From: Candidatus Woesebacteria bacterium UBA5941
GTDB taxonomy: Bacteria; Patescibacteriota; Microgenomatia; UBA8517
Assembly (NCBI GenBank): GCA_002430735.1
Contig: DJCV01000012.1
Location: forward strand, 1,390-65,389
Direction of reading: 5' to 3'
DNA length: 64,000 nucleotides
A model generated the notes under the pieces. That model did no database searches, was not told the origin of the DNA, and saw nothing but the letters and a program-made list of their open reading frames with translations. Position numbers and translations under genes: made by a program. Shown here in pieces: positions 1-49,398 of this stretch (its first letter is position 1; the number at the start of each line of letters is the position of its first letter).

Positions 1-669
1 GATAGGATAGAAGAACGCTTCAGGGGTGATTCCCATAAATTCAAAACCATGAGTCGTAAGGAATGAATACATTTCTTTAAAGAGCGTTTCTCCTTTATAT
101 AACTCCTTGACTGCTAATTCAATATGAATAATATCAACCTTCTTCAGAGTTTCTTTGCCGTACTTTAAAATCTCACCTTCAGTTCCTTGTGTATCTATCT
201 TTAGAAATACTGGATGAACCAGAGTCTTTGATGCAAAGTAGTCGTCGATGTTTATCGTCTTCACCTTACGTTTTTTAGGTCTCTCTTTGTTAAAGCGAGT
301 GTCGCTATTAAGAAATGGGAGCAGTGATGATAATTCGGTTCGAGGATAGATTAAGAACTGGCTGTACCCGTTTTTTCGAGCAAGAGCAACGTTTTCTAAC
401 ACTACATTGCTATTCTGTATCCGACTTTTTATCTTTGTAATATTCTCCTTGATTGGTTCAAAAGCGTAGTACTTTACTGATGGGAAAACATGAAGTAATG
501 CGGCCATGACTTTTCCTTCATGTGCGCCAACATCAATAATGGTGTTAATTCTATAGTTCTTTAACCACTCGTATTGAACAAAAACCGGTATATATATTCT
601 CCGAAAAATTAGTGGAATTAGATTCGGATTCAGTATAATATACAAACCAAACGCTATCATGTTTTTCAT
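1..669 (-). CDS. FkbM-family SAM-dependent methyltransferase (partial; C-terminus runs off window start)
   Basis: Minus-strand open frame from ATG (plus 667-669) to position 1 with no stop; hand translation MKNMIAFGLYIILNPN...IIDVGAHEGKVMAALLHVFP... carries the IIDVGAxxG glycine-rich SAM motif typical of FkbM/Methyltransf_21 enzymes; not in ORF track because it has no in-window stop. Confidence 0.7.
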   Translation of the reverse strand, partial: MKNMIAFGLYIILNPNLIPLIFRRIYIPVFVQYEWLKNYRINTIIDVGAHEGKVMAALLHVFPSVKYYAFEPIKENITKIKSRIQNSNVVLENVALARKNGYSQFLIYPRTELSSLLPFLNSDTRFNKERPKKRKVKTINIDDYFASKTLVHPVFLKIDTQGTEGEILKYGKETLKKVDIIHIELAVKELYKGETLFKEMYSFLTTHGFEFMGITPEAFFYPI

Positions 670-685
670 AATGGGATAGTGTAAC

Positions 686-1432
686 ATGAGCGCTATGTTA
701 AAAGTAAAAAGATTTATATACGTTTGTGCATACTTAGTGCTTCGTATTGTCTCACCCAGGCATCGAAAGCAATGGGCAAGACTCACAGGAGAGATAAAGC
801 GATTAACTCCAAAAGAAAAACGTGCACTCTTACTGCTTGATCCTTCTCTAGCATATAACAATGAATACTTCCTGTCTGATCAGTTTGAAGATCAAAACGA
901 ATGGTCAAACAAAATCTCTCAAGTTATTGATAAACATCTTAAGCCCAAGAGCGTAGTTGATGTTGGTTGTGGTCGAGGTTTGTTTTTAAGACATTTTCAT
1001 GAGAAGTCCATTCGAATACTTGGCATTGAAGGATCTTCTAGTGCAATAAAAAATCTAGTGGTTCCGAAAAATAAGATTATTCAGACTGACCTTCGCAACG
1101 TGTTTCAGAAGACGAATGCGAGAAAGTATGATATCGCTATCAGTTTTGAAGTGGCGGAGCATCTTGAACGTGAGTTTGCAGGTGTTTTTGTATATAACTT
1201 AACCACCCTCTCTAATACGATTTTGTTTACAGCTGCACACCCAGGCTGGTCTATTCCACATCCTCACCATCCGAACGAACAACCATATGAGTATTGGGAT
1301 ACTCTGTTTGAATTCTATGGTTATAAAGAAGACACGAAAACAACAAATAGGTTGAGACGAGAACTTGCAAAATTACACCTGCCTCTAAACGTTTCTCATT
1401 ACTCAGATGTAAAGGTATACAAAAAAAGATAA
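686..1432 (+). CDS. Class I SAM-dependent methyltransferase
   Basis: ORF track; motif I VVDVGCGRGLF, acidic loop and ISFEVAEHLE typical of Methyltransf_11/12 fold. Confidence 0.7.
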   Translation: MSAMLKVKRFIYVCAYLVLRIVSPRHRKQWARLTGEIKRLTPKEKRALLLLDPSLAYNNEYFLSDQFEDQNEWSNKISQVIDKHLKPKSVVDVGCGRGLFLRHFHEKSIRILGIEGSSSAIKNLVVPKNKIIQTDLRNVFQKTNARKYDIAISFEVAEHLEREFAGVFVYNLTTLSNTILFTAAHPGWSIPHPHHPNEQPYEYWDTLFEFYGYKEDTKTTNRLRRELAKLHLPLNVSHYSDVKVYKKR

Positions 1433-3510
1433 TGAAAAATAGAATAGGAGTATTTTTATTTACACATAAATACCCTATTTTCCTCCTGCTTGTTTCCGGT
1501 TTTCTCACATGGACACACTTTAAGTATGGTCGTTTGATCGCAACCGCCGAGGAGGCACTTACCTTTTATAACCCCGAGAGAACGCTTCGGTTATTCAGCT
1601 CTCTTTGGGTTGAAGTATCATCCGGATTTCCAATCGCATTTTTAATTCCGCGTATTCCTGTTCTTTTTGCTTCAGCACTCCTCCAAGAAGCGCTGTTTCC
1701 GCACTATGTACAAGCTGTTCTCTTCTTCTTTATATTTTGTTCTGGTTTCATTGGATCATTCTACTGTTTCAAATCCTTAACAAAAATTAACTCAAATAGA
1801 ATCGCTTTTTTGGTTGCATTATTTTATGGATCTAATTTGTTTACACTCACACAGGTATGGCAACGTTTCTTGTACCCACTGTTTTTCTTGTGGGCATTTT
1901 TGCCTGTGTTTTTAGTTCTGTGGGATTTATTACTAGGAAGTAAAAAAAGGAAATATCTTGGTTGGCTCGTGGTGACTTCAATTGTTTATTCGTATACCTT
2001 TACCTTTCCCTCATCTATTTTGCTCCTCGGGTTGGTCATGGTATTTGTCTCCTTAAAGCACATTTTCTTTGCAGGTAACAAGGCAAGCCAATTGCGTTTT
2101 ACAGTAAAAACAGTTTCTTTTTGGGCAGTTTTCCAGCTCTGGTGGTTTATTCCACTGTTTTTCCTGAGAAACAGCGCTTTATCTGAAAGTGTGAGTACTG
2201 ATCAAAATATTTCGGCTTTACGGGAAGTAAGTCAATTCTTTAATAACAGTGATGTTCTCCTGTTGAAGCAACAATTCTTCTTTAGCGGTGGAGGATACTT
2301 CAGTGAGTACTATCAAAGCCATCTATTGCAAAGTCTTAGTGGAATTCTGCTCAGCATCGTCATTGTTGGCCTTGTTCTTTCCGCAAAAAGCCGTACATAT
2401 CGACTCGTTAGCATCTTTTTTCTATTCAGTTGGTTTCTTGTCAAAGGTAGTAACCCTCCATTCGGTGATCTTTTTTATACAACGCTCTTTGAGAAGATTC
2501 TTTTTGCACAAGTCCTGCGCAATCCTTATGAGAAGCTTGGCGTCTTATATACTTTGCTTTACTCACTCTTTTTGGGGGTAGGGGTATATTTTCTAACAAA
2601 TAAACTGCAGAGCTACGCTCGCAATGCACTACACATTCTTCTGCTTGTATCACTTCTTGCACTTTCTTGGCCTCTATGGAAAGGGTCTGTTTTTCCGTAC
2701 TTTTATTATGTTACCGTCCCACAACGGTATGAGGAGGTAAACAAAATTGTCTCAGAAAATCAGGGCAGAATACTTCAATTACCACTTTCACGCGGTTCTA
2801 CCGTTGAATACTCATGGTTTTATCGAGGAGAGGACCCGAGTGAATATTTGTATGACAGGCCATCAGTATCAAAATTCACAACACTTACCTCACTAGACCG
2901 TTTTTACTCAGGGCTGGTACAAAATATTTCACATAAAAATATGCCACATTTGTTAGCTGTCGCTAATATTGGGAGCGCGATCGTGAATTATGATCTAGTA
3001 AAGTCCCCGTATTTTTCAGAAACGGCTACTGACAGTAGCCTAATGGTGCAAAAATGGTTAAACGGGGCAAAGCCAATTAAAATCGAGACGTTAGAAGTAT
3101 ATCCTCAGTTAGAAGAATCAGCCGTTGGTGCGGTGTACCTCGTGAATCAGATAAAAAATGTAACAGGAGTTGATTCTGCGTTCCAGTTCATGCTTGAGGA
3201 CGCATTTAACCCAAAGACAATGGCGGTTGTCGAAGGCGCCAATGAAATAAAAATCGCAGAAGTGAAAGAACTACCCTCACATGCTGTGGAGAAAATACAA
3301 CCCCGGCATTACAAGGTAACCGTACATGAAAACTCAGGCACATTCTTACTGATCTTGACCCAAAGCTTCAATAAAAATTGGAGGGCCACAATTAATGGCA
3401 ATCGTGTACCAGAGCACGTATTAGCCAATGGATACGCGAACGGGTGGATTATCTCACATACAGGCACGTACGAAATTGATATAATCTTTCAGGTATTTCC
3501 ATGGGAATAA
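1432..3510 (+). CDS. Large polytopic membrane protein, putative GT-C-fold glycosyltransferase (paralog 1 of 4)
   Basis: 692 aa, about 12 predicted hydrophobic helices N-terminally plus soluble C-terminal domain; shares KGSNPPFGDLF...FAQVLRNPYEKLG motif and C-terminal NGYANGW motif with ORFs at 8187, 11033, 13598. Confidence 0.6.
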   Translation: MKNRIGVFLFTHKYPIFLLLVSGFLTWTHFKYGRLIATAEEALTFYNPERTLRLFSSLWVEVSSGFPIAFLIPRIPVLFASALLQEALFPHYVQAVLFFFIFCSGFIGSFYCFKSLTKINSNRIAFLVALFYGSNLFTLTQVWQRFLYPLFFLWAFLPVFLVLWDLLLGSKKRKYLGWLVVTSIVYSYTFTFPSSILLLGLVMVFVSLKHIFFAGNKASQLRFTVKTVSFWAVFQLWWFIPLFFLRNSALSESVSTDQNISALREVSQFFNNSDVLLLKQQFFFSGGGYFSEYYQSHLLQSLSGILLSIVIVGLVLSAKSRTYRLVSIFFLFSWFLVKGSNPPFGDLFYTTLFEKILFAQVLRNPYEKLGVLYTLLYSLFLGVGVYFLTNKLQSYARNALHILLLVSLLALSWPLWKGSVFPYFYYVTVPQRYEEVNKIVSENQGRILQLPLSRGSTVEYSWFYRGEDPSEYLYDRPSVSKFTTLTSLDRFYSGLVQNISHKNMPHLLAVANIGSAIVNYDLVKSPYFSETATDSSLMVQKWLNGAKPIKIETLEVYPQLEESAVGAVYLVNQIKNVTGVDSAFQFMLEDAFNPKTMAVVEGANEIKIAEVKELPSHAVEKIQPRHYKVTVHENSGTFLLILTQSFNKNWRATINGNRVPEHVLANGYANGWIISHTGTYEIDIIFQVFPWE

Positions 3511-4346
3511 ACAATCTAGACTCAAAAACGAATAAAAGGCTATCTGAATTACTCGCCAATACGGGTGATATGGCATTAAAGCGAAGAGCTCGTGAAATTG
3601 TCACTCACCTTGAGCTGAAGGATGGTCTTTCCGTGTTAGATATTGGGTGTGGTGACGGGTACTATCTCCATTTGTTGTCAAAATTGCCATATAAATTGAA
3701 GTTATCTGGTACAGATTATGATGAAAGTGGTTTGTCTCGTGCACGTAAGAATTTAGGAAAAGGAATCCCGCTCTATCAAGGGGATTTAATGGCAAAATTA
3801 CCTTTTAAATCAAACACCTGGGACAGAGTTGTCATGTCTGAGGTGGCGGAGCATTTGCCCAATGATGTGAAAGGGTTAAAAGAGGTGAATCGCGTTCTGA
3901 AAAAGGGTGGGAGTATTTGTCTAACCGTGCCATGCTGGGATTTCCCTCTTTTGTGGGATCCTCTAAGTTGGATACTTCAACGAGTCGGCACACCTATACG
4001 GCATGGATTTTTTGCAGGTATTTGGAATCAACATGAACGACTGTATAAGCCAGATCAGATTGTGAGTGTCTTAAAAAAAGCCGGGTTTGAAGTTGTGGAA
4101 TCAAAAACAGTGACCTTTTGGTGTTTGCCGTTTAATCATTACATTGTGAACATTACTGCACGGCTTCTTGCCGCAGGTTCTGTCTCAGGAGAGACAGCCA
4201 CAGCTTTAAGTAAGTATTCGGTAAAACCAAAGCGGTCCTTTTTATTAAATATGGCATTCAAATTCGCAAATGCGGTGGACTCATTAAATAATTGGTACCA
4301 ACCACGAAGTGGTGTCGCCGTCTTCGTACATGCAAGGAAAAAATGA
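3501..4346 (+). CDS. Class I SAM-dependent methyltransferase
   Basis: VLDIGCGDGYYLH motif I, EVAEHLPND, LKKGGSICLTVP motifs. Confidence 0.75.
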   Translation: MGINNLDSKTNKRLSELLANTGDMALKRRAREIVTHLELKDGLSVLDIGCGDGYYLHLLSKLPYKLKLSGTDYDESGLSRARKNLGKGIPLYQGDLMAKLPFKSNTWDRVVMSEVAEHLPNDVKGLKEVNRVLKKGGSICLTVPCWDFPLLWDPLSWILQRVGTPIRHGFFAGIWNQHERLYKPDQIVSVLKKAGFEVVESKTVTFWCLPFNHYIVNITARLLAAGSVSGETATALSKYSVKPKRSFLLNMAFKFANAVDSLNNWYQPRSGVAVFVHARKK

Positions 4347-5524
4347 AGCAAATATACATTTGGGCTGCAGGCGCGCGAGGAAACGGCATTTCTGGAAGTG
4401 ACCGTATTTTTATAGAATTTGCTCGACGCTGGCAAAATCCAAAAACTCATGTGGTAGTGACTACCGAGGGGCGAGAAATGTGCCTACGCAATAACTTGAA
4501 CGATACTCAGGTAAACTTCCTCATTGTTCCATCACCTCAAGAAAAACGATTTGGTTTTTTCATTAGTTATTTTTCGACGATCATATCATCAATCTGGTAT
4601 GCGTTTACAATACGGGTCGATGATCCATCTCAATCTGTTGTGTATTCCGCAAGCGAATTTTGGATGGACAGTATTCCAGCAGTTATTCTAAAGTTTCGAT
4701 ATCAAAAGATAACCTGGGCGGCAACCTGGTACCAAACTGCGCCGAACCCTTTAAAAGGGTTTACTGAATCTAAGAGACAGAACGCGTATCGACTCAGTGC
4801 TTTTTACTATTGGTTTATGCAGTTGCCAGTGAAACCACTCATTTCTGCTTTTGCAAATAAAATTCTTGTAAATAATGAACTTGAGAGAAAACAATTTCCA
4901 GCAGCAAACAAGCAAGGGAAAGTAGAGGTTGTCATAGGTGCTGTGGATACAAAAAAGATCATTGCATATAAAGAAAATCACAAGAAACCAACGAAGCCTA
5001 TATACGACGCAGTTTTTCAAGGACGCTTTCATCCTCAAAAAGGAGTCGTTGAGCTTATTCGCATATGGTCAAAGGTTTGTCTTTCCCACCCGACGGCGAA
5101 ACTCGCAATGATTGGTGACGGTCCACTTATGCAAACAGTTCGTAGCGAAATAGCAAAGTATCAGTTAGAGGAGAATATTACGCTGGCAGGGTACGTTTTG
5201 GACGGTGATAAAAAGTACTACACTTTTTTGAACTCAAAGATGGTAGTTCATCCAGCGAAATATGATAGTGGAGGTATGGCAGCTGCGGAAGCAATGTCAT
5301 TTGACATGCCCTGTATTGGGTTTAATTTACAAGCATATAAATCTTACTATCCAGTGGGTATGGTTACCTCAAAAAATGACGAAGACTTTGCTAGAAACAT
5401 TATAAAACTTATTAAGAACGAAACCTTGAGAAAACGATTAGGTCGAGAGGCTGGAATCTTTGTGCTTCGTAATTATTCTTGGGACATTCGCGCTGAAAGT
5501 GTGAGAATATTTATTACATCATGA
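4343..5524 (+). CDS. Glycosyltransferase family 4 (GT-B, retaining type)
   Basis: ORF track frame 4292..5524; likely start ATG 4343 overlapping upstream stop (ATGA); C-terminal GGMAAAEAMSFDMPCIGFN is the GT4 EX7E-region signature. Confidence 0.75.
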   Translation: MKQIYIWAAGARGNGISGSDRIFIEFARRWQNPKTHVVVTTEGREMCLRNNLNDTQVNFLIVPSPQEKRFGFFISYFSTIISSIWYAFTIRVDDPSQSVVYSASEFWMDSIPAVILKFRYQKITWAATWYQTAPNPLKGFTESKRQNAYRLSAFYYWFMQLPVKPLISAFANKILVNNELERKQFPAANKQGKVEVVIGAVDTKKIIAYKENHKKPTKPIYDAVFQGRFHPQKGVVELIRIWSKVCLSHPTAKLAMIGDGPLMQTVRSEIAKYQLEENITLAGYVLDGDKKYYTFLNSKMVVHPAKYDSGGMAAAEAMSFDMPCIGFNLQAYKSYYPVGMVTSKNDEDFARNIIKLIKNETLRKRLGREAGIFVLRNYSWDIRAESVRIFITS

Positions 5525-6354
5525 AAAAAACGCCATTAGTCTCAGTAATTATTCCATGCAAGAATTCTTCAAAGATGATTTCAAGTTGTTTACAAAGCAT
5601 TAAGGATCAAACTTACAAAAACTTAGAAATTATTGTCGTTGATAACTATTCTGTGGACGATACGTACGCGATTGCACGTACATTTACTAAAAATGTCTAC
5701 AAGAAAGGACCGGAAAGGAGTACTCAGCGGAACTGGGGAGTGATGAAAAGTCGTGGTGATTGGGTGCTTTTTGTCGACAGCGATATGGAGCTTTCTCCTA
5801 CAGTTGTCGAAAATTGCGTAAAAATAGTTCGAAAAAATTCAGCAGTAAAGGGCTTGATTATTCCTGAGGAGTCAATGGGGGAAGGGTTTTGGGCAAAATG
5901 CAAGAATCTAGAAAGGAGCTTTTATGTAGGTGTGGCTTATATGGAAGCAGCGAGGTTTTTTAACAAAAAATTGTTCCTTGAGGTTGGTGGGTATGATGAA
6001 ACAATGGTAAGCGGCGAAGACTGGTATCTCTCTCAAAAATTTGAAAAGGTAGGGAAAATAAAAAATGTTCCAGACCTTATATACCACAACGAAGGGCAGC
6101 TAACTTTGAGTGGAACTATTCGCAAAAAATTTTATTATGCAAAGCATTTCGTAAAGTATATGCATATCCGTGACAATAAATATATTAAGCATCAGACCAG
6201 CATTGTTTCTCGGTATAAACTCTTTTTCTCCCGACCAAGAAAATTATTTGCAAACCCATTCGTAGGGGTTGGAATGCTTATTATGAAGACAGGTGAGTTT
6301 GCTGCTGGTGGACTTGGATATTTAATGTCGATTACTTCAAAGACCATCTCATGA
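5521..6354 (+). CDS. Glycosyltransferase family 2 (GT-A)
   Basis: N-terminal VSVIIPCKNSSKMISSCLQSI...EIIVVDNYSVDDT (GT2 signature with DxD region DSDME). Confidence 0.8.
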   Translation: MKKTPLVSVIIPCKNSSKMISSCLQSIKDQTYKNLEIIVVDNYSVDDTYAIARTFTKNVYKKGPERSTQRNWGVMKSRGDWVLFVDSDMELSPTVVENCVKIVRKNSAVKGLIIPEESMGEGFWAKCKNLERSFYVGVAYMEAARFFNKKLFLEVGGYDETMVSGEDWYLSQKFEKVGKIKNVPDLIYHNEGQLTLSGTIRKKFYYAKHFVKYMHIRDNKYIKHQTSIVSRYKLFFSRPRKLFANPFVGVGMLIMKTGEFAAGGLGYLMSITSKTIS

Positions 6355-11031: not shown

Positions 11032-11032
11032 A

Positions 11033-17016: not shown

Positions 17017-17017
17017 T

Positions 17018-17812: not shown

Positions 17813-17846
17813 TAGCTGCTGGATTTGAAAATTAGTAAAATACTCT

Positions 17847-19255: not shown

Positions 19256-19273
19256 TCTTGATATACTGCGTCA

Positions 19274-20302: not shown

Positions 20303-20306
20303 TGCG

Positions 20307-21044: not shown

Positions 21045-21045
21045 A

Positions 21046-24907: not shown

Positions 24908-24916
24908 GAAAACCGT

Positions 24917-26062: not shown

Positions 26063-26107
26063 GGAAATGATCCTGTGTAAGCTCCACGATTTTGGTACAA
26101 TAAGCTC

Positions 26108-26749: not shown

Positions 26750-27270
26750 GAAAATCCACAATCCTAAAGCTTGCCTTCGGTATTCCATTTTTAGCACTGT
26801 ATTTTCGCTATTTTACAATTCCCAATTATCCATTCCCAGGGCCGCCACCTGATGCGCTGCAATCATATGAGCCAGCAGACACAGAAACTCCGCTTAGACG
26901 CGGATACTTCACACAGTACACGCGAGAGCAAGTAATTGCGCATTATCGCGGACAGCTCGATTATCTTCCGGTCATTCGTTTGAACTATCCACCAGAGGAG
27001 GCGGGGACCATTATTCGTGATCAGACCCGCAGCTGGTATCTTGAAGAATTAGCTCACCCACTGCGAGGTTCACTCTTCATTAATGGGTTTATTGCACAAA
27101 AAGCACAGGATAACATCGTCATTGATGGAAAACCGTTTCACCAAAAAATCACTATTAAGTACGTGCCAAGCAATGTATTTGTGAGACTTGCAATTTCAGG
27201 TCTTATATTGCTGGCCATTTACCTCCTCTATTTGGAATGGAAAAAAGCCCTACAGTCTCTATTGTCATAG
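26746..27270 (+). CDS. Hypothetical membrane protein (N- and C-terminal hydrophobic helices)
   Basis: ORF track; ATGA-coupled to upstream gene; no recognisable motif. Confidence 0.4.
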   Translation: MRKSTILKLAFGIPFLALYFRYFTIPNYPFPGPPPDALQSYEPADTETPLRRGYFTQYTREQVIAHYRGQLDYLPVIRLNYPPEEAGTIIRDQTRSWYLEELAHPLRGSLFINGFIAQKAQDNIVIDGKPFHQKITIKYVPSNVFVRLAISGLILLAIYLLYLEWKKALQSLLS

Positions 27271-29448: not shown

Positions 29449-30890
29449 AAAATCGATTTCCACAGTCATTGTTTTATATATTTATAGGAGTTATTTTGTT
29501 GGGAGCAATTGGCGTGAGGCTCTACAAGATTTCGAGCCCCGTTGCGGATTGGCATTCATGGCGACAGGCTGACACTGCTTCCGTAAGTTATCTCTATGTT
29601 CGCGACGGAATCGATATTTTATATCCACGCTATTTTGACGTATCGAGTATTCAGACATCTTACATCAATTTAGAAGGGTGGAGGTTTGTAGAATTCCCTT
29701 TCTTCAATATTGCCCATGCAATAGGATATAAATACGTGGGTGCAGGTTATAGCTTTGATGAATGGGGGAGGCTAATTTCAATTGCTTCGTCCGTGGTAAC
29801 TACATTTGTGTTATTTCTACTTGGATGGCGGGTTATTGGGAGATTTGGTGGATTGGTCGCTGCATTTGTGTACGCATTCCTTCCTTATAATATCTTTTTT
29901 ACACGAGTCATTCTCCCTGAACCGATGGGTGTGATGTTTGCAGTGCTCGGCCTCTATTTTGGTGTTGTGTATTTTGACACATTTAAGAAGAAGTACTTGA
30001 TCCCAACAGTTATATTCTTTGCATGCGCGCTTCTCATGAAGCCCTTTTTTGCGTTCTTTGCGTTCCCGTTGGTATATATGGCTTGGAGGGAGTATGGCAT
30101 CATCGGAATTCTGAAGCAAAAAGTGCTCTTGCTCTCATTTAGCGGGGTACTGATTCCGTTTTTCGTCTGGCGAGGCTGGATGAATTATGAAACACGATTC
30201 ATTGGGATCCCATTCTTCGCTTGGGCATTTAATGGAGATGGAATTCGCTTTAGACCGTCATTTTGGAATTGGATTTTTGCTGAACGGATTGCAAAGATGA
30301 TTCTTGGTATGTGGGGAGTTGTCCCATTGAGCGTTGGTTTTCTCTATTCAATTAAGAAATATCCAGTTATTTTCTTCTCAGCGCTAGGGATGCTTTGTTA
30401 TCTCAGCTTAGTAGCAACGGCAAATGTACGGCATGATTATTATCAAACGATGATTGTGCCCGCAATTGCGCTCTGTGTTGCAGCTGGGGTTGATTGGTTT
30501 ATTTCTCATGCGCCGTTTCATAAATTTGCGACTACCGTTTTTGTCGCATTTTCAATGTGTATGATGATTCTTGTTGGATGGTACCAGATTCGAGATAATT
30601 ACCAAGTTAATCACGGTGAAATTATTGCAGCAGGCGAGGCAGTTCAGAAGTTAACCAGCGAAGATTCTCGGGTTATTGCACCATACAATGGTGATACTGC
30701 CTTTTTATATCAAACAAAACGGTTTGGATGGCCTGTCGTCGATCGAAGCATCGATGAAATGATTACTCTGGGCGCTGACTATTTCGTTTCTGTAAATTAT
30801 GATGCCGACACGAATAATTTTATGAAGCTCTTTAAGACTGTAGAGAAAACCAACCAATATATAATTCTTGACTTACATGAACGACTATGA
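29445..30890 (+). CDS. GT-C glycosyltransferase, PMT/ArnT-like
   Basis: ORF track frame 29403; ATG 29445 overlaps upstream stop (ATGA); polytopic, early loop ADWHSWRQADTASVSYLYVRDG; family assignment tentative. Confidence 0.45.
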   Translation: MKNRFPQSLFYIFIGVILLGAIGVRLYKISSPVADWHSWRQADTASVSYLYVRDGIDILYPRYFDVSSIQTSYINLEGWRFVEFPFFNIAHAIGYKYVGAGYSFDEWGRLISIASSVVTTFVLFLLGWRVIGRFGGLVAAFVYAFLPYNIFFTRVILPEPMGVMFAVLGLYFGVVYFDTFKKKYLIPTVIFFACALLMKPFFAFFAFPLVYMAWREYGIIGILKQKVLLLSFSGVLIPFFVWRGWMNYETRFIGIPFFAWAFNGDGIRFRPSFWNWIFAERIAKMILGMWGVVPLSVGFLYSIKKYPVIFFSALGMLCYLSLVATANVRHDYYQTMIVPAIALCVAAGVDWFISHAPFHKFATTVFVAFSMCMMILVGWYQIRDNYQVNHGEIIAAGEAVQKLTSEDSRVIAPYNGDTAFLYQTKRFGWPVVDRSIDEMITLGADYFVSVNYDADTNNFMKLFKTVEKTNQYIILDLHERL

Positions 30891-32089
30891 AGATTTTAAT
30901 GCTCGTTCCGTTTTTGCCTAATACTTCAATGTCTGGCGGCCAAACCCGCTGGTATAACATTATTAAAGGACTATCTAAAGAGCACGAAATTACGCTTTTT
31001 TCATTAATCAAAGACGAAAGCGAGAAAAAATTTATTCCAGAGCTTCAAAAATACTGCAAAAAAGTCAGAGTATTTAACCGCCCCAAGTCACCGTGGACGG
31101 TCAGAAACATTTTGCTTACAGCGTTTAGTTATTACCCACTCTTAGTTATTCGTAATTTCTCTCTCAAAGAACGTCGCGCAGTTGTAGCTGAGCTCAAGAA
31201 AGAAAAGTACGATCTCATTCATGCCGAGACGTTTTACGTTATGCCTCACGTTCCCAGTAATATCCCGCAGGTCCCATCGGTTTTAGTTGAACAAACGATT
31301 GAATACATGGTCTATAAGCATTATGTCGATCATGAAGTCCCTTGGTTTTTAAAGCCAATTTATTTACTCGATATTTTGAAGCTTCGATATTGGGAACTCT
31401 ATTTTTGGAAGAAGGCAAATAGGCTCGTTGCTGTATCCGATGAAGATCGTGAAGTAATGAGAAAGCTGATCCCAGATATTCAGGTCGATGTTATTCCAAA
31501 TGGGGTAGACGCAGCATATTTTGAAAAGTATCCGGTGAAGCGAAAGTCTCCTCCACGAGTTCTCTATGGAGCAGCTAACTTTAACTGGCTGCAAAATGTA
31601 GAGGCTGTAAATATTTTGCTTGAGGAAGTTTGGCCAGAAATTGTAACCAAAGTGAAGGATGCATATTTGTGGATTGTAGGTCGAAATATTCCTGAGTCGA
31701 TTTACACAAAAGCAAAAACACTCGATCGTGTCGAATTCACAGAATCGATTCCTGATGTACGTGATGCGTTAAAATCAGCTTCAATTATGGTGGTCCCTGT
31801 TGAGGGGCCTGGTGGAACAAGACTGAAAGTTCTTGAGGCAATGGCGTCAGGTCTCCCAGTTGTTTCTACATCAACAGGAGTTGCGGGACTTGGAATCGAT
31901 GAAGGAACTCATGCAATTGTAAGCCAATCCAGTGAAGGGATGGCTCGTGAAGTTGAGGCCCTCCTTAAGAACTCTAGTAGAGCAAAAAAGGTTGGTGAAG
32001 CAGGGAAGAAGTTTGTGGAGAAGTATTTTGACTGGTCTGTAATAGTGGGAATTCACAATAAAATCTATAAAGAACTTGTTCATGATTAA
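30887..32089 (+). CDS. Glycosyltransferase family 4
   Basis: GGTRLKVLEAMASGLPVVSTSTG. Confidence 0.75.
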   Translation: MKILMLVPFLPNTSMSGGQTRWYNIIKGLSKEHEITLFSLIKDESEKKFIPELQKYCKKVRVFNRPKSPWTVRNILLTAFSYYPLLVIRNFSLKERRAVVAELKKEKYDLIHAETFYVMPHVPSNIPQVPSVLVEQTIEYMVYKHYVDHEVPWFLKPIYLLDILKLRYWELYFWKKANRLVAVSDEDREVMRKLIPDIQVDVIPNGVDAAYFEKYPVKRKSPPRVLYGAANFNWLQNVEAVNILLEEVWPEIVTKVKDAYLWIVGRNIPESIYTKAKTLDRVEFTESIPDVRDALKSASIMVVPVEGPGGTRLKVLEAMASGLPVVSTSTGVAGLGIDEGTHAIVSQSSEGMAREVEALLKNSSRAKKVGEAGKKFVEKYFDWSVIVGIHNKIYKELVHD

Positions 32090-32951
32090 GCCGTTGGTCT
32101 CTATTATTATTGTGAGCTATAACACGAAGGAGTTATTGTTGAACTGCCTCGCTTCAATTAAAGAATATAAAGACGTTTCTTTAGAGATTATTATTTCTGA
32201 TAACGGATCAACAGATGGAACTTTGGAGGTCCTGCGGAAATACAAAGATCTTCCGATCACGCTCATTGAAAACCAGGAGAACCTTGGATTTTCTAAGGGT
32301 AATAATGTCGGGAGAAAGTATGCAAAGGGCGAGTATGTTTTATTTCTTAACCCAGATACGCTCCTTCAACGGCATGTACTTTCAGAAACGCTCTCATATA
32401 TGCAAAACAGGCCGGATGTCGGAGCTCTGACGTGTAAAGTTGTTCTTCCTGACGGTTCACTTGATCCTGATACAAGAAGGTCATTTCCCACACCATTGGT
32501 TGCAATTACTCATTTTAGTGGTCTTGATCGACTATTCCCAAAGTCTCCAATCGTTGGACGGTATTGGTATGGGTACAAAGATGAAGATGAAATTTCAGAA
32601 ATTGATTGCTTGCAAGGAGCCTACTTTTTAACACGAAAAAAAGTATTAAATAAGGTCTCATGGTTTGATGAAGACTACTTTCTGGATGGGGAGGATATCG
32701 ATTTATGTTGGAAAATTAGAGAGCAGGATTTAAAAATAATCTATTATCCACAAATTGCAATTACCCACATTAAAAAAGGGTCGAAAAAGAAGAATAAATC
32801 CCGACGGTCAGTTACTGGTGGGGTACAGGCTATGGAAATCTTCTATCGAAAGAGAATGTGGACGAAATATCCACTCCTCGTTAATTACATGGTAATAGCA
32901 GGCATTAAAGTCTTGTTGCTTATTAGGACGGCGAAGTTTTATTTATCATGA
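32076..32951 (+). CDS. Glycosyltransferase family 2
   Basis: LVSIIIVSYNTKELLLNCLASI...EIIISDNGSTDGT. Confidence 0.8.
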   Translation: MFMIKPLVSIIIVSYNTKELLLNCLASIKEYKDVSLEIIISDNGSTDGTLEVLRKYKDLPITLIENQENLGFSKGNNVGRKYAKGEYVLFLNPDTLLQRHVLSETLSYMQNRPDVGALTCKVVLPDGSLDPDTRRSFPTPLVAITHFSGLDRLFPKSPIVGRYWYGYKDEDEISEIDCLQGAYFLTRKKVLNKVSWFDEDYFLDGEDIDLCWKIREQDLKIIYYPQIAITHIKKGSKKKNKSRRSVTGGVQAMEIFYRKRMWTKYPLLVNYMVIAGIKVLLLIRTAKFYLS

Positions 32952-34060
32952 AAATTGCAATTGACGCTCGCTTTTACGGCCTTGAGAATGCAGGGCTTGG
33001 TCGATATACCATGAATCTTATTGCAGAACTGCAAAAAATCGACACTAAAAATGAGTACACACTGTTATTGAACGAAAAGTGGTGCAAGTCGCTTTCTCTC
33101 TCTCCTAACTTTACAAAGGTACTTGTGCGTGCACGCCACTACAGTGTTGCTGAACAGAGAGAGGTTCCTATGGTTTTAAAAAAAATTAATCCGGACCTCA
33201 CACATTTTCTACATTTAAATGTCCCTCTTTGGTATAACCGTCCATATGTTGTAACCATTCATGATTTACTTATGCACTCAGGTATTGGTAAAGAGGCAAC
33301 AACACTTCCGCTATGGAAATTTCTCATTAAGCGCTTAGGCTATAGAGCTGTATTTGATCACGCGGTGAAGAGTGCACAAAAAATAATTGTTCCCTCGAAA
33401 TTTGTGAAGTCGGAGCTTGAGAAAACGTATCCACAGGTACTCGATAGGATATCGGTTATTTATGAGGGAGTGAGCTTACAAGAGAACCATGCGAAGACAA
33501 GCGTCAGAATCTCTGACGAGTATTTCCTGTATGTCGGGAATGCATATCCGCATAAAAATCTAAAGACGTTGTTGTCAGCTATTTCATATTTAAATGTTAA
33601 AAGAGAACAATCAGTGAAGCTGGTTTTGGTTACCCCTCGTGATGTGTTTACTGAACGATTGAAAAAGGAAATTGAAAAAACGAAGACTAAACATCTGGTC
33701 ATCCTCAAAAGCGGTGTTGATGACGATGAATTACAATCGCTATACGCACATGCAAAAGCGTTTGTGTATCCAAGTTTCTCTGAGGGCTTTGGATTGCCTG
33801 GACTTGAAGCAATGCAAAGTAATACCAGGCTTGTCGTATCTGACATCCCGGTTTTCCATGAAGTATATGAAGATAACGCGCTGTACTTTAATCCCCATGA
33901 TGTTGAAAGTATGAGCTTAGTACTTTTACGAGTTCTCAATGAAAAAAACGAGAAGCGATTTGGTGCGCTCCGGAAAGCGTCCTCATTTGCAAAGCGCTAT
34001 TCATGGACTGCAATGGCAAAAGAAACAGTAAAGCAATATAAAAGCCTGTCACAAGTGTAA
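32948..34060 (+). CDS. Glycosyltransferase family 4
   Basis: YPSFSEGFGLPGLEAMQSNTRLVVSD. Confidence 0.75.
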   Translation: MKIAIDARFYGLENAGLGRYTMNLIAELQKIDTKNEYTLLLNEKWCKSLSLSPNFTKVLVRARHYSVAEQREVPMVLKKINPDLTHFLHLNVPLWYNRPYVVTIHDLLMHSGIGKEATTLPLWKFLIKRLGYRAVFDHAVKSAQKIIVPSKFVKSELEKTYPQVLDRISVIYEGVSLQENHAKTSVRISDEYFLYVGNAYPHKNLKTLLSAISYLNVKREQSVKLVLVTPRDVFTERLKKEIEKTKTKHLVILKSGVDDDELQSLYAHAKAFVYPSFSEGFGLPGLEAMQSNTRLVVSDIPVFHEVYEDNALYFNPHDVESMSLVLLRVLNEKNEKRFGALRKASSFAKRYSWTAMAKETVKQYKSLSQV

Positions 34061-34118
34061 CAGGCTTCCGTCGATATTGTGCTCCTTTTTCGATCGGTCG
34101 GTGTTATTATAGGCACAG

Positions 34119-35204
34119 ATGCATACAAAGGCAAAAAAGGTAGCGATCGTATATGACCGGGTTAATAAATGGGGTGGTGCAGAACGTGTTTTGTTATCCC
34201 TTCACGAATTGTTCCCAAATGCTGATTTGTTTACCTCCGTATATGACAAAAAAGGAGCGCCCTGGGCGTCTTCATTTAAGAATGTGAAAACGTCCTTTGT
34301 GCAGTACATCCCATTGGCAAAAAGAAACCATGAATACTTTGCACTTCTTATGCCAATGGCTTTTGAATCGTTTAATTTTTCCACGTATGACGTAGTTATT
34401 TCAGTAACGAGCGAAGCGGCAAAAGGGGTGATCACTGGACCAGACACACTGCACTTGTGTTATTGCTTAACTCCTACCCGATATTTGTGGAGTGGACGAA
34501 AAACATATTTTGATTCTGCTTTAAAACGGGCAATAACAAAGCCAGCCCTCACGTACTTGCGTAACTGGGACCGGACAGCCAGTGGACGGCCAGACAAAAT
34601 GATAGGAATTTCCACAGAAGTAAAAAAACGAATACAGAGATATTACGGGCGGGAAAGCGCTTTGATATTCCCACCTGTCGAGACTGAACTGTTTATAAAT
34701 ACGAAAAAGAGAAAAGGTGAGTACTTCCTGCTCGTTTCACGATTAGTTGGATATAAAAAGGTGTCTCTTGCGGTTAAGACGTTTAATCAAATCGGCGAAA
34801 AGTTAATTATTGTAGGAACTGGTAGACAGGAGCGTCATTTGAAATCCATTGCAAACCGTAATATTGAATTTCGTGGCACGGTAAGTGATCAAGAACTTGC
34901 GAAATTGTATGCAGGTGCAAAAGCTCTCATCTTTCCTCAGCATGAGGACTTTGGTTTAGTATCCCTCGAAGCACAAGCCGCGGGGACGCCCGTAATTGCC
35001 TACAAAAAAGGAGGTAGTCAAGATACGGTGAAAGATAAAAAAACTGGACTTTTGTTTAATAAACAAACAATTACCAGCTTAACCAGGGCAATACAGAGCT
35101 TCAATGAAAGAGATTTCAACCCAAAAGTATTGAAAAATCACGCCAAACAATTTGAAAAGAAGCGTTTCCTAGATGAATTTGCTACAATGCTTTCATCGTT
35201 ATGA
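34119..35204 (+). CDS. Glycosyltransferase family 4
   Basis: FPQHEDFGLVSLEAQAAGTPVIAYKKGG. Confidence 0.7.
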   Translation: MHTKAKKVAIVYDRVNKWGGAERVLLSLHELFPNADLFTSVYDKKGAPWASSFKNVKTSFVQYIPLAKRNHEYFALLMPMAFESFNFSTYDVVISVTSEAAKGVITGPDTLHLCYCLTPTRYLWSGRKTYFDSALKRAITKPALTYLRNWDRTASGRPDKMIGISTEVKKRIQRYYGRESALIFPPVETELFINTKKRKGEYFLLVSRLVGYKKVSLAVKTFNQIGEKLIIVGTGRQERHLKSIANRNIEFRGTVSDQELAKLYAGAKALIFPQHEDFGLVSLEAQAAGTPVIAYKKGGSQDTVKDKKTGLLFNKQTITSLTRAIQSFNERDFNPKVLKNHAKQFEKKRFLDEFATMLSSL

Positions 35205-36286
35205 AGATTGTTATTTTCTGTGGTGGCTACGGGACTCGAATGTGGCCAGCAAGCCGAAAAAGTTATCCAAAGCAATTCTTTCCGATTATAGGCGGAAAAT
35301 CCTTCTTTGAGCACACACTTCATCGATTTGAAAAAGCATATAAGCCAGAAGATATTTTAATTTCAACGGAAGCTACTTACGCTGACTTTATTTATAAACT
35401 GGCACCAGAAATCCCTGTAGAGAATGTGATTATTGAGCCCGAGAGACGCGATAACCTTGCTGCAATTGCATTAGTTACCGCGCTCTGCGAGAAACGTTTC
35501 CCAGGAGAAGTGATTTTCTTTAGTTGGTCTGATCACTTGATCAAAAAAGAAAAGGAATTTTTACAGTATGTGAAAGTTGCAGGCGATTATGCACATGAAA
35601 CAGGCACCCCTGTTTCAGTGAACGAATATCCAACATTTCCAAATATCTACGATGGATGGCTGCACTTCGGAAATAAGATTAATACCTATAACGGTGTGAA
35701 TCTGTATGAAATTGAAAAGTTTATAGAGAAACCGAATCTGCAAACTGCGAAGCGGCTCTTTAAATCAAAAGGATACTTAATCCATACCGGTTATGGTGCG
35801 TGGCGAATTGATCGCCTGGTTGGCTATTTCAAAGAATATGCAGGCGAAAGCTACGCCCACGTTGAAAAAATTGCACAGACCTGGGGTACCGATCAGTTTG
35901 AATCAACATTGAAAAGTGAATATGGAAAAATTGAAAAGAATTCAATTGATTATGGACTCTTTGAAAAAATCCCTGCAAATGAACGGCTTACGATGGCCGT
36001 AGATACTGGTTGGCAAGATGTCGGTACTTGGCAGCTTATGTTTGAATCACTCGCCTCTGATGCAGAGGCAAATCTCGTTGAAGGAGAAGGAAAAGCTCGA
36101 TTTATTGATGCTTCTGGAAATCTCGTTGTCGGGAGTAAAGGCAAAATGGTTGCCGTTATTGGATTATCAAATATTGCAGTAATAGATACTCCAACTGGCT
36201 TACTGGTAAGTTCACTTGAAAAAACTGCACGCGTGAAGGAATTATTTGGTATGCTTGAAAAAGATGATCCGGATTTCGTAAACTAG
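35201..36286 (+). CDS. manC: Mannose-1-phosphate guanylyltransferase (nucleotidyltransferase)
   Basis: N-terminal IVIFCGGYGTRMWPASRKSYPKQFFPI matches the GGxGTRLWPxSRxxxPKQF signature of GDP-mannose pyrophosphorylases. Confidence 0.65.
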   Translation: MKIVIFCGGYGTRMWPASRKSYPKQFFPIIGGKSFFEHTLHRFEKAYKPEDILISTEATYADFIYKLAPEIPVENVIIEPERRDNLAAIALVTALCEKRFPGEVIFFSWSDHLIKKEKEFLQYVKVAGDYAHETGTPVSVNEYPTFPNIYDGWLHFGNKINTYNGVNLYEIEKFIEKPNLQTAKRLFKSKGYLIHTGYGAWRIDRLVGYFKEYAGESYAHVEKIAQTWGTDQFESTLKSEYGKIEKNSIDYGLFEKIPANERLTMAVDTGWQDVGTWQLMFESLASDAEANLVEGEGKARFIDASGNLVVGSKGKMVAVIGLSNIAVIDTPTGLLVSSLEKTARVKELFGMLEKDDPDFVN

Positions 36287-49352: not shown

Positions 49353-49398
49353 TTCTCTATTATATATGGTATTTTGAACTGGATGTTATAATTATCTA

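Follow-up and report, generated by a model that had tools for sequence, protein, structure and literature searches.

The genes at positions 686 to 36286 of the window, the whole 64,000-nucleotide stretch analysed here, probably form the main locus for surface-glycan assembly in a bacterium of the Microgenomates group (CPR/Patescibacteria), whose ~0.94-Mb genome devotes ~5% to the cluster, and would operate a two-compartment pathway. The predicted product is a heteroglycan or lipoglycan that contains mannose, carries O-methyl and O-acetyl groups and belongs to a Gram-positive-type envelope. The order of these genes is kept across the lineage.

Gene content and layout

The ORF listing gives 31 ORFs of at least 100 aa between 686 and 36286, all on the + strand; a 54-aa ORF (13437-13601) lies below this size floor and is left outside the 31. 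The first-pass annotation had described a single-direction run of about 35 genes, a number that falls to ~31, and the single direction is borne out by the listing and by junction analysis. Neighbouring ORFs overlap at 21 of the 30 junctions (by exactly 4 nt in 8) and are separated by gaps at 9, only three of which exceed 40 nt (153, 58 and 45 nt); overlapping stop and start codons are frequent along the run. The + strand run goes on to 47400 with genes for DUF4012, RecO, DUF2130, aaRS, MraZ, MraW, PBP and Ddl, and dcw/mur peptidoglycan genes adjoin the glycan locus. The glycan cluster extends beyond the window start by 8 kb or more, and this upstream part contains a nucleotidyltransferase gene and two dehydratase/epimerase genes. 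The features are as follows (profile scores in bits).

1-687, −: FkbM-type (Methyltransf_21) methyltransferase, 5′ part; open frame of 229 codons, runs off window start; JGI call at 8498-9256 of L002/L003, PF05050
686-1432, +: class I SAM methyltransferase; Methyltransf_23 44.5; 1-nt overlap with 1432
1432-3510, +: AftD-like GT-C bigA, 692 aa; ~9 TM (TM scan) plus soluble C-terminal domain
3501-4346, +: class I SAM methyltransferase; Methyltransf_11 66
4292-5524, +: GT4; Glycos_transf_1 87; JGI start 4343
5521-6354, +: GT2; Glycos_transf_2 93.9
6351-7379, +: GT2; Glycos_transf_2 86.2
7333-8217, +: class I SAM methyltransferase; Methyltransf_23 90.2
8187-10358, +: AftD-like GT-C bigB1, 723 aa; homologous to 11033; in alignment A1
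10324-11031, +: class I SAM methyltransferase; Methyltransf_23 75.2
11033-13444, +: AftD-like GT-C bigB2, 803 aa
13437-13601, +: two-TM ORF, 54 aa, doubtful gene (JGI gene caller); not conserved in relatives
13598-16291, +: AftD-like GT-C bigC, 897 aa; anchor gene of conserved core
16276-17016, +: GT2, polyprenyl-phosphate sugar synthase-like, soluble; 16-nt overlap with bigC stop
17018-17812, +: GT2; Glycos_transf_2 52.5
17847-18536, +: class I SAM methyltransferase, NodS-like; Methyltransf_23 61, NodS 40
18533-19255, +: GT2, DPMS-like (polyprenyl-phosphate sugar synthase); Glycos_transf_2 113.8
19274-20302, +: GT4 (Pfam)
20307-21044, +: GT2 (Pfam)
21046-22479, +: PMT_2-type GT-C, 10 TM; PMT_2 58.8, cut-off 26.1
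22464-23852, +: PMT_2-type GT-C; PMT_2 30.8, cut-off 26.1
23849-24907, +: GT4 (Pfam)
24917-26062, +: GT4 (Pfam)
26108-26749, +: left-handed beta-helix (LbH) O-acetyltransferase, WcaF-like; Hexapep; NCBIfam WcaF 98, below cut-off
26746-27270, +: 174-aa protein, hydrophobic N- and C-termini; no match in Pfam or NCBIfam; homologs in L008 and L067
27237-28130, +: GT2 (Pfam)
28105-29448, +: Wzy_C-like polytopic protein, polymerase/ligase candidate; 10 TM
29403-30890, +: PMT_2/PMT-type GT-C; PMT_2 35.2 and PMT 25.4, both above cut-offs
30887-32089, +: GT4 (Pfam); TIGR03087-like 170, below cut-off
32076-32951, +: GT2 (Pfam)
32948-34060, +: GT4 (Pfam)
34119-35204, +: GT4 (Pfam)
35201-36286, +: mannose-1-phosphate guanylyltransferase, ManC-type without PMI domain; NTP_transferase plus ManC_GMP_beta-helix; TIGR01479 198, covering positions 3-348 of 467
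36313-38355, +: DUF4012 membrane-anchored protein; DUF4012 82.5

The glycosyltransferase and methyltransferase family calls of the first-pass annotation hold in the Pfam profile search. The 31 ORFs comprise, as it had counted, 8 GT2 enzymes (5521, 6351, 16276, 17018, 18533, 20307, 27237 and 32076), 7 GT4 enzymes (4292, 19274, 23849, 24917, 30887, 32948 and 34119), an LbH acetyltransferase at 26108, a ManC-type NTP transferase (GDP-mannose pyrophosphorylase) at 35201 and seven GT-C proteins, three of them PMT_2 members above the gathering score and four large membrane proteins assigned by fold and profile comparison. The supposed seven SAM methyltransferases are five class I enzymes on the + strand (686, 3501, 7333, 10324 and 17847) and a sixth on the minus strand, the divergent FkbM-type gene, whose ATG overlaps that at 686 head-to-head by 2 nt. 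A Wzy/ligase-like candidate does exist at 28105, but the match is weak, as its Wzy_C score of 30.1 bits lies under the cut-off of 31.7; its relatives score 17-21 bits, and it has no PDB sequence match. The 174-aa protein completes the tally. The DUF4012 protein may be an envelope/EPS auxiliary member of the cluster. DUF4012 is enriched in CPR bacteria and Gram-positives, and occurs in a Bifidobacterium EPS locus (PMC6744442).

The AftD-like proteins and the donor synthases

High-confidence AlphaFold models and profile comparison show that the four large proteins, bigA, bigB1, bigB2 and bigC, belong to one AftD-like GT-C superfamily; AftD itself is a tuberculosis cell-wall enzyme. None has a Pfam match above cut-off (bigC reaches 16.6 bits against GT-C_AftD, cut-off 26), and their family profile found no PDB sequence. 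They had been taken as GT-C-like from the sequence, and structure searches with the models returned a GT-C fold with AftD as best match. For the bigC model (pLDDT 90.3), the best Foldseek match is AftD 6w98 (E 2.8e-11, TM-score 0.53), followed by AglB, EmbB, STT3 and PglB; its C-terminal part matches CBM-containing structures. AftD is clearly the top structural match in both structure searches, with ALG9, ALG12, STT3 and AglB among the weaker matches of the AftD-like models. It should be noted that the similarity to AftD is at the level of the fold only.

Within the superfamily, hhalign joins bigA, bigB and bigC at probabilities of 98.8-99.9% (bigA against the bigC profile: 98.8%, E 4e-17), and bigB1 and bigB2 are 29% identical over 687 aa (E 2e-70). 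Common to all is an acidic residue in the first loop together with an FR[DN]..KF motif: EE at 40-41 and LRNPYEKL at 362 in bigA, DD at 39 and FRNMFDKF at 366 in bigB1, and the invariant D34, GGQ141-143 and FRDxxKF343-349 in bigC. A methyltransferase gene lies directly 5′ of each of 1432, 8187 and 11033.

The GT2 enzymes at 16276 and 18533, each of ~240 aa, most resemble polyprenyl-phosphate sugar synthases and would supply the donors of the GT-C enzymes. The best PDB matches of 18533 are the Pyrococcus DPMS 5mlz (E 1e-16, full length), GtrB and ArnC; 16276 matches only ArnC (full length, E 1e-5) and DPMS, and its top NCBIfam names are AglJ, PpgS and Dol-P-hexose transferase. Both score far under the curated NCBIfam cut-offs and are without the membrane anchor found in DPMS, GtrB and ArnC. 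Since the solved structures closest to them all belong to polyprenyl-phosphate glycosyltransferases (DPMS, GtrB, ArnC), extracytoplasmic transfer from polyprenyl-phosphate sugars, as first proposed, is well founded.

The other half of that proposal, export by the GT-C enzymes, is not supported. The Wzx, ABC-transporter and Wzz families of Pfam have no match among the 31 ORFs, as had been noticed, but this absence does not imply GT-C export because GT-C enzymes transfer sugars and do not flip lipids. Apart from MraY among the dcw genes, the window holds no priming phosphoglycosyltransferase, flippase, chain-length regulator or LCP-type ligase, and the inspected part of the ~942-kb genome, 74 kb made up of the 64-kb window and the 10 kb before it, has no GtrA- or Wzx-type gene. 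Characterised multi-component transmembrane glycosylation systems use a GtrA- or Wzx-type flippase that is a protein of its own and may be shared between systems; in tabulated examples its locus tag is distant from those of its GT-A/GT-C partners (PMC8035078), so that flippases are commonly encoded elsewhere. For this reason, a missing flippase is weak evidence.

Proposed pathway and its precedents

We infer enzyme activities, donors and acceptors from family, fold and relatives. By family assignment, ManC would provide GDP-mannose, and the upstream nucleotidyltransferase and two dehydratase/epimerase genes a second nucleotide sugar. At the cytoplasmic face, soluble GT4 and GT2 enzymes would build a lipid-linked oligo- or polysaccharide. 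Methylation and acetylation would also take place there: a crude TM scan predicts no membrane-spanning domain or signal-like N-terminus in the methyltransferases and the LbH protein (one internal hydrophobic stretch is flagged in the latter), and such soluble enzymes must act in the cytoplasm, as SAM and acetyl-CoA are cytoplasmic. Judging from their closest solved relatives, 16276 and 18533 may attach monosaccharides to polyprenyl phosphate, mannose probably among them. A putative flippase encoded outside the inspected region would move the lipid-linked intermediates across. Outside the membrane, the three PMT_2-type and four AftD-like GT-C enzymes would extend and branch the glycan with polyprenyl-phosphate sugars, the beta-sandwich C-terminal domains of the latter perhaps holding the growing chain. 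Finally, the Wzy_C-like protein might polymerise or ligate the product; if genuine, it implies a polyprenyl-diphosphate-linked intermediate that needs flipping.

The layout is indeed not standard for O-antigen, capsule or teichoic-acid loci, as had been remarked; its logic has precedents in mycobacterial LM/LAM/arabinogalactan synthesis and in Gram-positive three-component systems. The best reading is a hybrid pathway like the former, which in mycobacteria and corynebacteria involves the GT4s PimA/B, the polyprenyl-phosphate-mannose synthase Ppm1 and the GT-Cs MptA/B/C, AftA-D and Emb. Both have cytoplasmic GT4 steps from GDP-mannose, a soluble GT2 polyprenyl-phosphate sugar synthase, many outside GT-C enzymes, and periplasmic beta-sandwich, CBM-like domains. 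Here, however, the host belongs to the CPR and has no mycolates, and the genes form one co-directional locus instead of being scattered. The Mycobacteriales aftD-mmpA locus also keeps a putative methyltransferase, MtrP (bioRxiv 10.64898/2026.07.31.741767). AftD is an arabinan-acting GT-C with three carbohydrate-binding modules (CBMs) and a C-terminal helical bundle binding ACP, and its homologs are reported only in Actinobacteria (bioRxiv 10.1101/2019.12.22.885152). Unlike AftD (~1,300-1,400 aa), the proteins described here have 690-900 aa and a single C-terminal TM helix, and with Pfam scores under the cut-off they lack sequence-level membership.

Three-component systems, both Gram-positive and of the Gtr type that modifies O-antigen (CsbB/GtrB + GtrA/GtcA + YfhO/PMT_2 GT-C), likewise combine a GT-A polyprenyl-phosphate sugar synthase with a PMT_2-type or unannotated GT-C. 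Their logic is that of a GT-A lipid-phosphate-sugar synthase, a flippase and a GT-C, and soluble GT-A variants working with a separate membrane protein exist (PMC8035078). In contrast to their one-to-one pairs, 7-8 GT-C proteins stand here against two synthase-like GT2s, among 13 further Leloir-type glycosyltransferases and 5-6 methyltransferases, and look like main builders rather than decorators. The eukaryotic and archaeal lipid-linked oligosaccharide pathway (ALG GT4/GT2, DPM1, lumenal GT-C ALG3/9/12, STT3/AglB) shares cytosolic GT4/GT2 enzymes, a Dol-P-Man-synthase-like enzyme, several far-side GT-Cs and a final transfer step; in contrast to it, the large proteins here have no STT3-type WWDYG motif, and any protein acceptor is hypothetical. 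Wzy-dependent O-antigen and capsule loci share GT2/GT4 enzymes, an LbH O-acetyltransferase, sugar-nucleotide genes and a Wzy_C-like polytopic protein, but no Wzx, Wzz or initiating phosphoglycosyltransferase was found in this cluster, and its Wzy_C score is below cut-off. Seven GT-C enzymes and 5-6 methyltransferases are not known to be part of such loci.

Conservation of the locus and alternative readings

Comparison across related genomes found the order kept gene for gene in 80 loci, with named records nearly all from Microgenomates (CPR). The conserved order is bigC-GT2-MT-GT2pp-GT4-GT2-PMT2-PMT2 followed by GT4-GT4-LbH-GT2-Wzy-PMT2, and 709 of the 740 classified genes are co-directional. 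We count this recurrence as a sign of selection on the unit.

The same comparison bears on the possibility, to which we assign a rather low but appreciable probability, that the run is two or more separate glycan pathways in a shared neighbourhood and not one assembly line. For example, GT4-GT4-LbH-GT2-Wzy-PMT2 could make a Wzy-using repeat-unit polymer, and GT2pp with PMT2 or AftD-like GT-C enzymes and methyltransferases could be three-component decoration systems. In many loci, GT2pp-GT4-GT4-LbH-GT2-Wzy comes straight after bigC, others carry bigC-GT2-MT-GT2pp-GT4-GT2-PMT2-PMT2, and the bigA/bigB complement of the left arm (686-13444) differs between loci; since some relatives carry individual sub-modules on their own, two or more products may come from this locus. 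Two different synthase-like GT2s fit such a division, and several systems can share one flippase (PMC8035078). Against it, the modules are contiguous and co-directional here and in several relatives (for example L032, and L008 for the right-hand module), often translationally overlapped with internal gaps of at most 153 nt, and the ManC gene and the Wzy-like gene each occur only once.

Protein glycosylation is an unlikely explanation for the locus: a lipid-linked oligosaccharide would pass to S-layer, pilin or other surface proteins via an OST- or PglL-like enzyme, and PMT-type GT-Cs would O-mannosylate proteins. The locus does contain PMT and PMT_2 domains, the best NCBIfam names are AglJ (archaeal S-layer N-glycosylation) for the small GT2s and Agl23 for 21046, the AftD-like models resemble AglB, PglB and STT3 too, and the Wzy_C family takes in protein O-oligosaccharyltransferases. 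Pili and sortase substrates are also abundant in CPR bacteria (PMC6744442). However, a motif scan found no WWD[YWFN]G motif (STT3/PglB/AglB type) in any large protein, AftD outranks those structural matches, and the CBM-like C-terminal domains suggest glycan acceptors. With 15 Leloir-type and 7 GT-C enzymes, the locus far exceeds what known bacterial protein glycosylation loci need.

The four AftD-like proteins are very unlikely to act in the manner of Mycobacteriales MmpA, as scaffolds or in lipid delivery, which would leave outside glycosylation to the three PMT_2 proteins; CPR bacteria are not known to have a mycolate pathway. The sole curated family match of 13598 (E 1.3e-8) and 1432 (E 2e-3) is the NCBIfam "MmpA family trehalose lipid delivery protein", far below its cut-off. 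Conservation of the acidic first-loop residue and of several invariant charged residues is, nevertheless, as expected for GT-C active sites. MmpA, poorly understood in function, is homologous to the first 11 TM helices of AftD and, per Foldseek, may itself be a glycosyltransferase (bioRxiv 10.64898/2026.07.31.741767).

Virtually no credence is due to the idea that the cluster is a chimera of the assembly or came in recently as a foreign island. Assembly JGI 3300013289 is broken at ~32.1 kb, inside the GT2 gene 32076-32951, but two ~942-kb contigs and a 68.9-kb contig bridge this break and rule out a chimera; assemblies made independently from different samples share the sequence, and synteny is kept across the lineage. 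All sampled 40-mers of the window are identical in three assemblies, and a 941,966-bp contig and the 68.9-kb contig, both from other samples, run through the whole 24-45 kb stretch. The cluster is native, not acquired, its GC content of 0.402 being taken as equal to the 0.419 of the flanking housekeeping DNA.

Gene content and layout of the locus

In the ORF listing, genes follow one another on the + strand without interruption from 686 to 47400. The part from 686 to 36286, which the first-pass annotation described as a 36-kb co-directional glycan-assembly supercluster, comprises 31 ORFs with a length of 100 aa or more. Twenty-one of the 30 junctions between them are overlaps, eight of exactly 4 nt, and nine are gaps, only three of which exceed 40 nt (153, 58, and 45 nt). 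At the 3′ end of the GT4 gene 32948–34060, within one of these three gaps, lies a palindromic hairpin (34040–34069; stem of 13 bp) that is a possible site of processing or attenuation within the operon. Promoter and terminator scans gave no enrichment over shuffled sequences in 1–20 kb and no convincing intergenic terminator on the + strand; scans for Rfam families, tRNAs, and tandem repeats were negative. Families were assigned by a Pfam scan of every ORF at gathering-score cut-offs.

Pfam assignments in the locus (genes are named by start coordinate in the window)
5521, 6351, 16276, 17018, 18533, 20307, 27237, 32076; + strand; GT2 glycosyltransferases (8)
4292, 19274, 23849, 24917, 30887, 32948, 34119; + strand; GT4 glycosyltransferases (7)
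21046, 22464, 29403; + strand; PMT_2 proteins (3), above gathering score
686, 3501, 7333, 10324, 17847; + strand; class-I SAM methyltransferases (5)
26108; + strand; hexapeptide (left-handed β-helix, LbH) acetyltransferase
28105; + strand; Wzy_C-like protein, 30.1 bits, below the cut-off of 31.7
35201; + strand; ManC-type nucleotidyltransferase
1–687, continuing beyond the window start; − strand; FkbM-type methyltransferase gene (sixth methyltransferase)

The scan of all ORFs reproduced the numbers of GT2, GT4, LbH, and ManC proteins proposed from the sequence alone. The single Wzy-like protein likewise stands as a count, with a Wzy_C score short of the cut-off (30.1 vs 31.7), whereas the seven methyltransferases originally claimed are reduced to five on the + strand and a sixth on the − strand at 1–687. 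The ATG codons of this FkbM-type gene and of the + strand methyltransferase gene 686–1432 overlap head-to-head by 2 nt; there is no intergenic space between the two genes, and each promoter must therefore be located either within the neighbouring gene or still farther upstream. As to which sugars the GT4s, GT2s, and methyltransferases act on, NCBIfam returned only generic, sub-cut-off matches; the methyltransferases are merely UbiG/NodS-like. Five ORFs of 686–36286 have no valid Pfam match, namely four polytopic proteins of 692, 723, 803, and 897 aa and one 174-aa protein. Together with the three PMT_2 proteins, the four polytopic ones, which are AftD-like by fold and profile comparison, make up the seven GT-C proteins anticipated for the window.

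The large membrane proteins and their resemblance to AftD

The four large proteins, bigA (1432), the bigB pair (8187 and 11033), and bigC (13598), each have a polytopic membrane domain at the N-terminus and, after it, an extracytoplasmic domain. Their overall fold matches that of solved GT-C enzymes, with AlphaFold confidence (pLDDT) of 88.1 for 11033 and 90.3 for 13598. A Foldseek search with 13598 retrieved AftD first (E 2.8e-11, TM-score 0.53), then AglB, EmbB, STT3, and PglB; the C-terminal β-rich part of the same protein matches CBM-containing proteins. The STT3/PglB/AglB-type enzymes are thus structural matches weaker than AftD, and a regular-expression search for their WWD[YWFN]G motif showed it to be absent from all eight polytopic proteins. 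Profile-profile comparison joins bigC to bigB (probability 99.9%, E 1e-35) and to bigA (probability 98.8%, E 4e-17). The three families have in common the motif FR[DN]..KF and acidic residues in the first loop: D34 is invariant in 36/36 bigC sequences, GGDD is conserved to 90% or more in bigB, and bigA has EE at 40–41, these positions being aligned with each other by hhalign.

At the level of sequence, the picture is different. The Pfam family GT-C_AftD (PF11847, DUF3367) scores 16.6 bits against 13598, vs a cut-off of 26, and among family members it gives a weak match in only 4/36 bigC and 0/24 bigB sequences. A direct sequence link to AftD was also sought by comparing the bigC profile with PDB sequences, and none was found at E up to 1. 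The sole curated family to match the large proteins is NCBIfam MmpA, far below cut-off; MmpA is itself a membrane protein related to AftD, and its function is unclear (bioRxiv 10.64898/2026.07.31.741767). AftD itself, an essential mycobacterial cell-wall enzyme with homologs reported within Actinobacteria only, carries three periplasmic CBMs and a C-terminal helix bundle to which acyl carrier protein binds (bioRxiv 10.1101/2019.12.22.885152). Unlike AftD, the models of 11033 and 13598 contain neither three CBMs nor a C-terminal multi-helix bundle; they show a smaller β-rich periplasmic region with fewer β-sandwich modules and a single C-terminal TM helix, and the large proteins measure 692–897 aa vs 1,250–1,312 residues for the AftD chain. 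The structural models and the profile comparison place bigA, bigB, and bigC as AftD-like GT-C enzymes by fold, outside the AftD family at the sequence level.

The other membrane proteins are more readily classified. The PMT_2 proteins are polytopic, with 8–10 TM segments, and score 58.8 (21046), 30.8 (22464), and 35.2 bits (29403) with PF13231, vs a cut-off of 26.1; a PMT match is seen as well for 29403 (25.4 bits vs 22.7). Relatives of the Wzy_C-like protein 28105 score 17–21 bits with Wzy_C or do not match it, and the 28105 profile found no sequence in the PDB. In related loci (L052–L084, e.g., L084:16787–20056) the Wzy-like gene encodes ~1,000–1,090 aa, including an extra polytopic C-terminal half of ~550 aa with a conserved GDDFTWLRW, which looks, from the motif, like a GT-C first loop; the protein of the window (28105–29448, 447 aa) is without this half. 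A 595-aa protein encoded upstream of the window (L002:609–2396, − strand) bears TGDDYLGLWRY, with TGDD after TM1, and is a possible eighth GT-C. BLAST was not significant for either the PMT_2 gene 29403 or the 595-aa protein as a counterpart of the extra half. The GDD motif common to that half and the 595-aa protein is only a hint of a relationship.

Sugar donors and a possible assembly pathway

Two GT2 proteins of ~240 aa each, 16276 and 18533, differ from the remaining six. AglJ, PpgS, Dol-P-hexose transferase, and ArnC are the top NCBIfam names for the two proteins. In the PDB, 18533 matches Pyrococcus DPMS (5mlz, E 1e-16, residues 1–219), then GtrB and ArnC; the only matches of 16276 are ArnC (E 1e-5, residues 3–230) and DPMS. 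The products of all these enzymes are polyprenyl-phosphate sugars. The GT-A domain of both proteins is thus closest, over its full length, to lipid-phosphate sugar synthases. It should be noted that all NCBIfam scores are far below the curated equivalog cut-offs (e.g., AglJ 97.8 vs 325), and that a TM segment is predicted in neither protein; soluble synthases of this kind, dependent on a membrane partner, have been described (PMC8035078). The start of 16276 overlaps the bigC stop codon by 16 nt. Because ManC is encoded in the cluster, GDP-mannose would be the most probable substrate for one or both proteins. The presence of these two synthase-like GT2s, the single observation that points this way, suggests that the large proteins may use a polyprenyl-phosphate-linked sugar donor.

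The core idea of the first-pass annotation, namely extracytoplasmic assembly by GT-C enzymes from polyprenyl-phosphate sugars, is well supported by the two synthase-like GT2s. Its argument from the lack of a flippase is weak: in systems of this kind the flippase is a protein in its own right, commonly encoded elsewhere, and a single one may serve several systems (PMC8035078). Pfam calls on all ORFs did confirm that no Wzx, ABC-transporter, or Wzz family is matched: there is no GtrA- or Wzx-type flippase in the window or in the 10 kb upstream (~8% of the genome), no Wzx, Wzz, or initiating phosphoglycosyltransferase among the cluster ORFs, and no match to ABC_tran or ABC2_membrane (Wzm/Wzt) anywhere in the window. 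The only PF00953 protein of the window is MraY of the dcw cluster (54794). The cluster itself contains no initiating transferase, flippase, chain-length regulator, or wall ligase. A 54-aa two-TM ORF (13437–13601), considered as a GacJ- or flippase-like partner, proved by tblastn to be unconserved in the 80 related loci. As proposed earlier, the layout is unlike that of O-antigen, capsule, and teichoic-acid loci; its clear analogues are the synthesis of LM, LAM, and arabinogalactan, the multi-component glycosylation systems of Gram-positive bacteria, and the lipid-linked oligosaccharide (LLO) pathway of the ER and archaea.

In the mechanism that we propose, the soluble methyltransferases and the LbH acetyltransferase would act in the cytoplasm, because SAM and acetyl-CoA are found there. 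At the inner face, 13 soluble Leloir-type glycosyltransferases would assemble a lipid-linked glycan, while 16276 and 18533 would make polyprenyl-phosphate sugars. After flipping, the seven GT-C enzymes would lengthen the glycan outside and add branches to it. The β-sandwich domains of the AftD-like enzymes may grip the chain, as the CBMs of AftD have been shown to do (bioRxiv 10.1101/2019.12.22.885152), and the Wzy_C-like protein would polymerize or ligate the product.

A methyltransferase gene lies directly 5′ of 1432, 8187, and 11033 in the window, and 5′ of bigA in 12 related loci among the best 80 of 164. Mycobacteriales likewise keep MtrP, a putative methyltransferase, within the aftD-mmpA locus (bioRxiv 10.64898/2026.07.31.741767). 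A functional coupling of methyltransferase and GT-C enzyme is an attractive hypothesis.

Conservation, genomic setting, and significance

A scan of one genome per species yielded 164 loci with bigC relatives; the best 80 were taken further, and their ORFs were classified by best match to the window proteins. Among these best 80, the named loci nearly all belong to Microgenomates-group CPR (Patescibacteria), and many others are labelled "uncultured Gammaproteobacteria," a placeholder, with the same gene content. The closest relative among them is only 34% identical. The gene order of the window recurs among the best 80 loci, 13598-17018-17847-18533-19274-20307-21046-22464-23849-24917-26108-27237-28105-29403, and 709/740 of their classified genes are co-directional. 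Two sub-modules are separable (GT2-MT-GT2pp-GT4-GT2-PMT2-PMT2 and GT4-GT4-LbH-GT2-Wzy-PMT2, where MT is a methyltransferase and GT2pp a synthase-like GT2), and the left arm, made up of methyltransferase genes paired with bigA or bigB, varies more than the rest. The locus is conserved in Woese-, Davies-, Ames-, Blackburn-, and Gottesmanbacteria, and the preservation of gene order across these lineages argues for a core envelope function. The sole exception among the named loci is L059 (JBAZVO010000006.1), labelled Candidatus Woesearchaeota archaeon (binned DPANN), which has a bigC-GT2-MT-PMT2-GT4 module at 29% GC; it is either a misbinned Microgenomates contig or a transfer between episymbiont lineages.

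The bigC and bigB families are essentially without Pfam coverage. A word-indexed search, which gave 23 and 47 homologs, had suggested rare families. For bigC this was overturned by an exhaustive HMM search, which retrieved 13,764 50%-cluster representatives at a limit of E 1e-3 and 2,899 at a limit of E 1e-30.

CPR bacteria live in attachment to other cells, and their genomes are minimal; to our knowledge, almost nothing is known of the chemistry of their surface. A full-text literature search found no description of such a locus in CPR bacteria. A survey of CPR protein families found those enriched in Microgenomates to be mostly hypothetical and often membrane proteins (PMC6744442). The locus is, in our opinion, a glycan super-operon conserved across its lineage and dominated by GT-C enzymes, with AftD-like families that are as yet unclassified. 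Current Pfam families do not cover its four largest enzymes, whose own families have thousands of metagenomic members; these enzymes provide concrete candidates for the biochemistry of the CPR envelope and take AftD-type GT-C enzymes beyond their previously known range. No new principle is involved; both the two-compartment logic and the building blocks have been described before. The result, in which enzyme functions are predicted, should be useful and somewhat surprising to CPR or GT-C specialists, and it overturns nothing.

A more far-reaching reading, which we regard as rather unlikely, is that Microgenomates build their major envelope polymer on a lineage-wide assembly line resembling the arabinogalactan/LAM or ER LLO pathways. 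The unclassified AftD-like GT-C families would be its main builders, each with a dedicated cytoplasmic methyltransferase, and O-methylated sugars would be made on polyprenyl phosphate and transferred outside. If that were true, AftD-type enzymes would be ancient and widespread rather than an actinobacterial speciality, and the glycan would be a distinctive CPR wall layer mediating host attachment.

An assembly chimera and a foreign island are both rejected as explanations of the locus. Exact-protein look-up places the window sequence on single ~942-kb contigs in two JGI metagenomes (941,859 and 941,966 bp), and it is also present on 76-kb, 117-kb, and 69-kb contigs of other assemblies; sampled 40-mers are identical wherever the loci fetched from these assemblies overlap the window. 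The JGI 3300013289 assembly breaks at ~32040–32172, inside the GT2 gene 32076–32951, where contigs 100004 and 100046 end or start; other assemblies bridge this break at ~32.1 kb, which may mark strain-level variation at that glycosyltransferase. The GC content of the cluster (0.402) matches that of the adjacent housekeeping DNA (0.419).

Glycan genes go on over the 10 kb that precede the window, so the inspected locus measures at least 44 kb, or ~4.7% of the ~942-kb genome. Beyond these 10 kb, a metagenome scan retrieved relatives only, at 52–66% identity.

Genes flanking the 686–36286 cluster
10 kb upstream of the window; 595-aa protein on the − strand; nucleotidyltransferase, 595-aa nine-TM protein, GT2, GT4, two dehydratase/epimerase genes, GT4, GT2
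Downstream; DUF4012, RecO, DUF2130, aaRS, MraZ, MraW, PBP, Ddl, Mur ligases, MraY, FtsW, MurG, FtsA, FtsZ

The host is a peptidoglycan-bearing cell. Its dcw/mur (peptidoglycan gene) region is itself divided between both strands; within 47381–54675, a Pif1-family helicase (50909–52252, − strand) and an α/β hydrolase (48669–49352, − strand) lie among the Mur ligase genes. DUF4012 is possibly envelope-related (PMC6744442). The RecO gene (38355–38897) lies directly 3′ of the DUF4012 gene with a 1-nt overlap; at only 180 aa, with RecO_N and a short piece of RecO_C, its product looks truncated vs the full RecO_C profile. The ORF-free stretch at 61.3–64 kb is only apparent: an ORF of more than 693 aa (61921–64000, + strand) continues past the window end.
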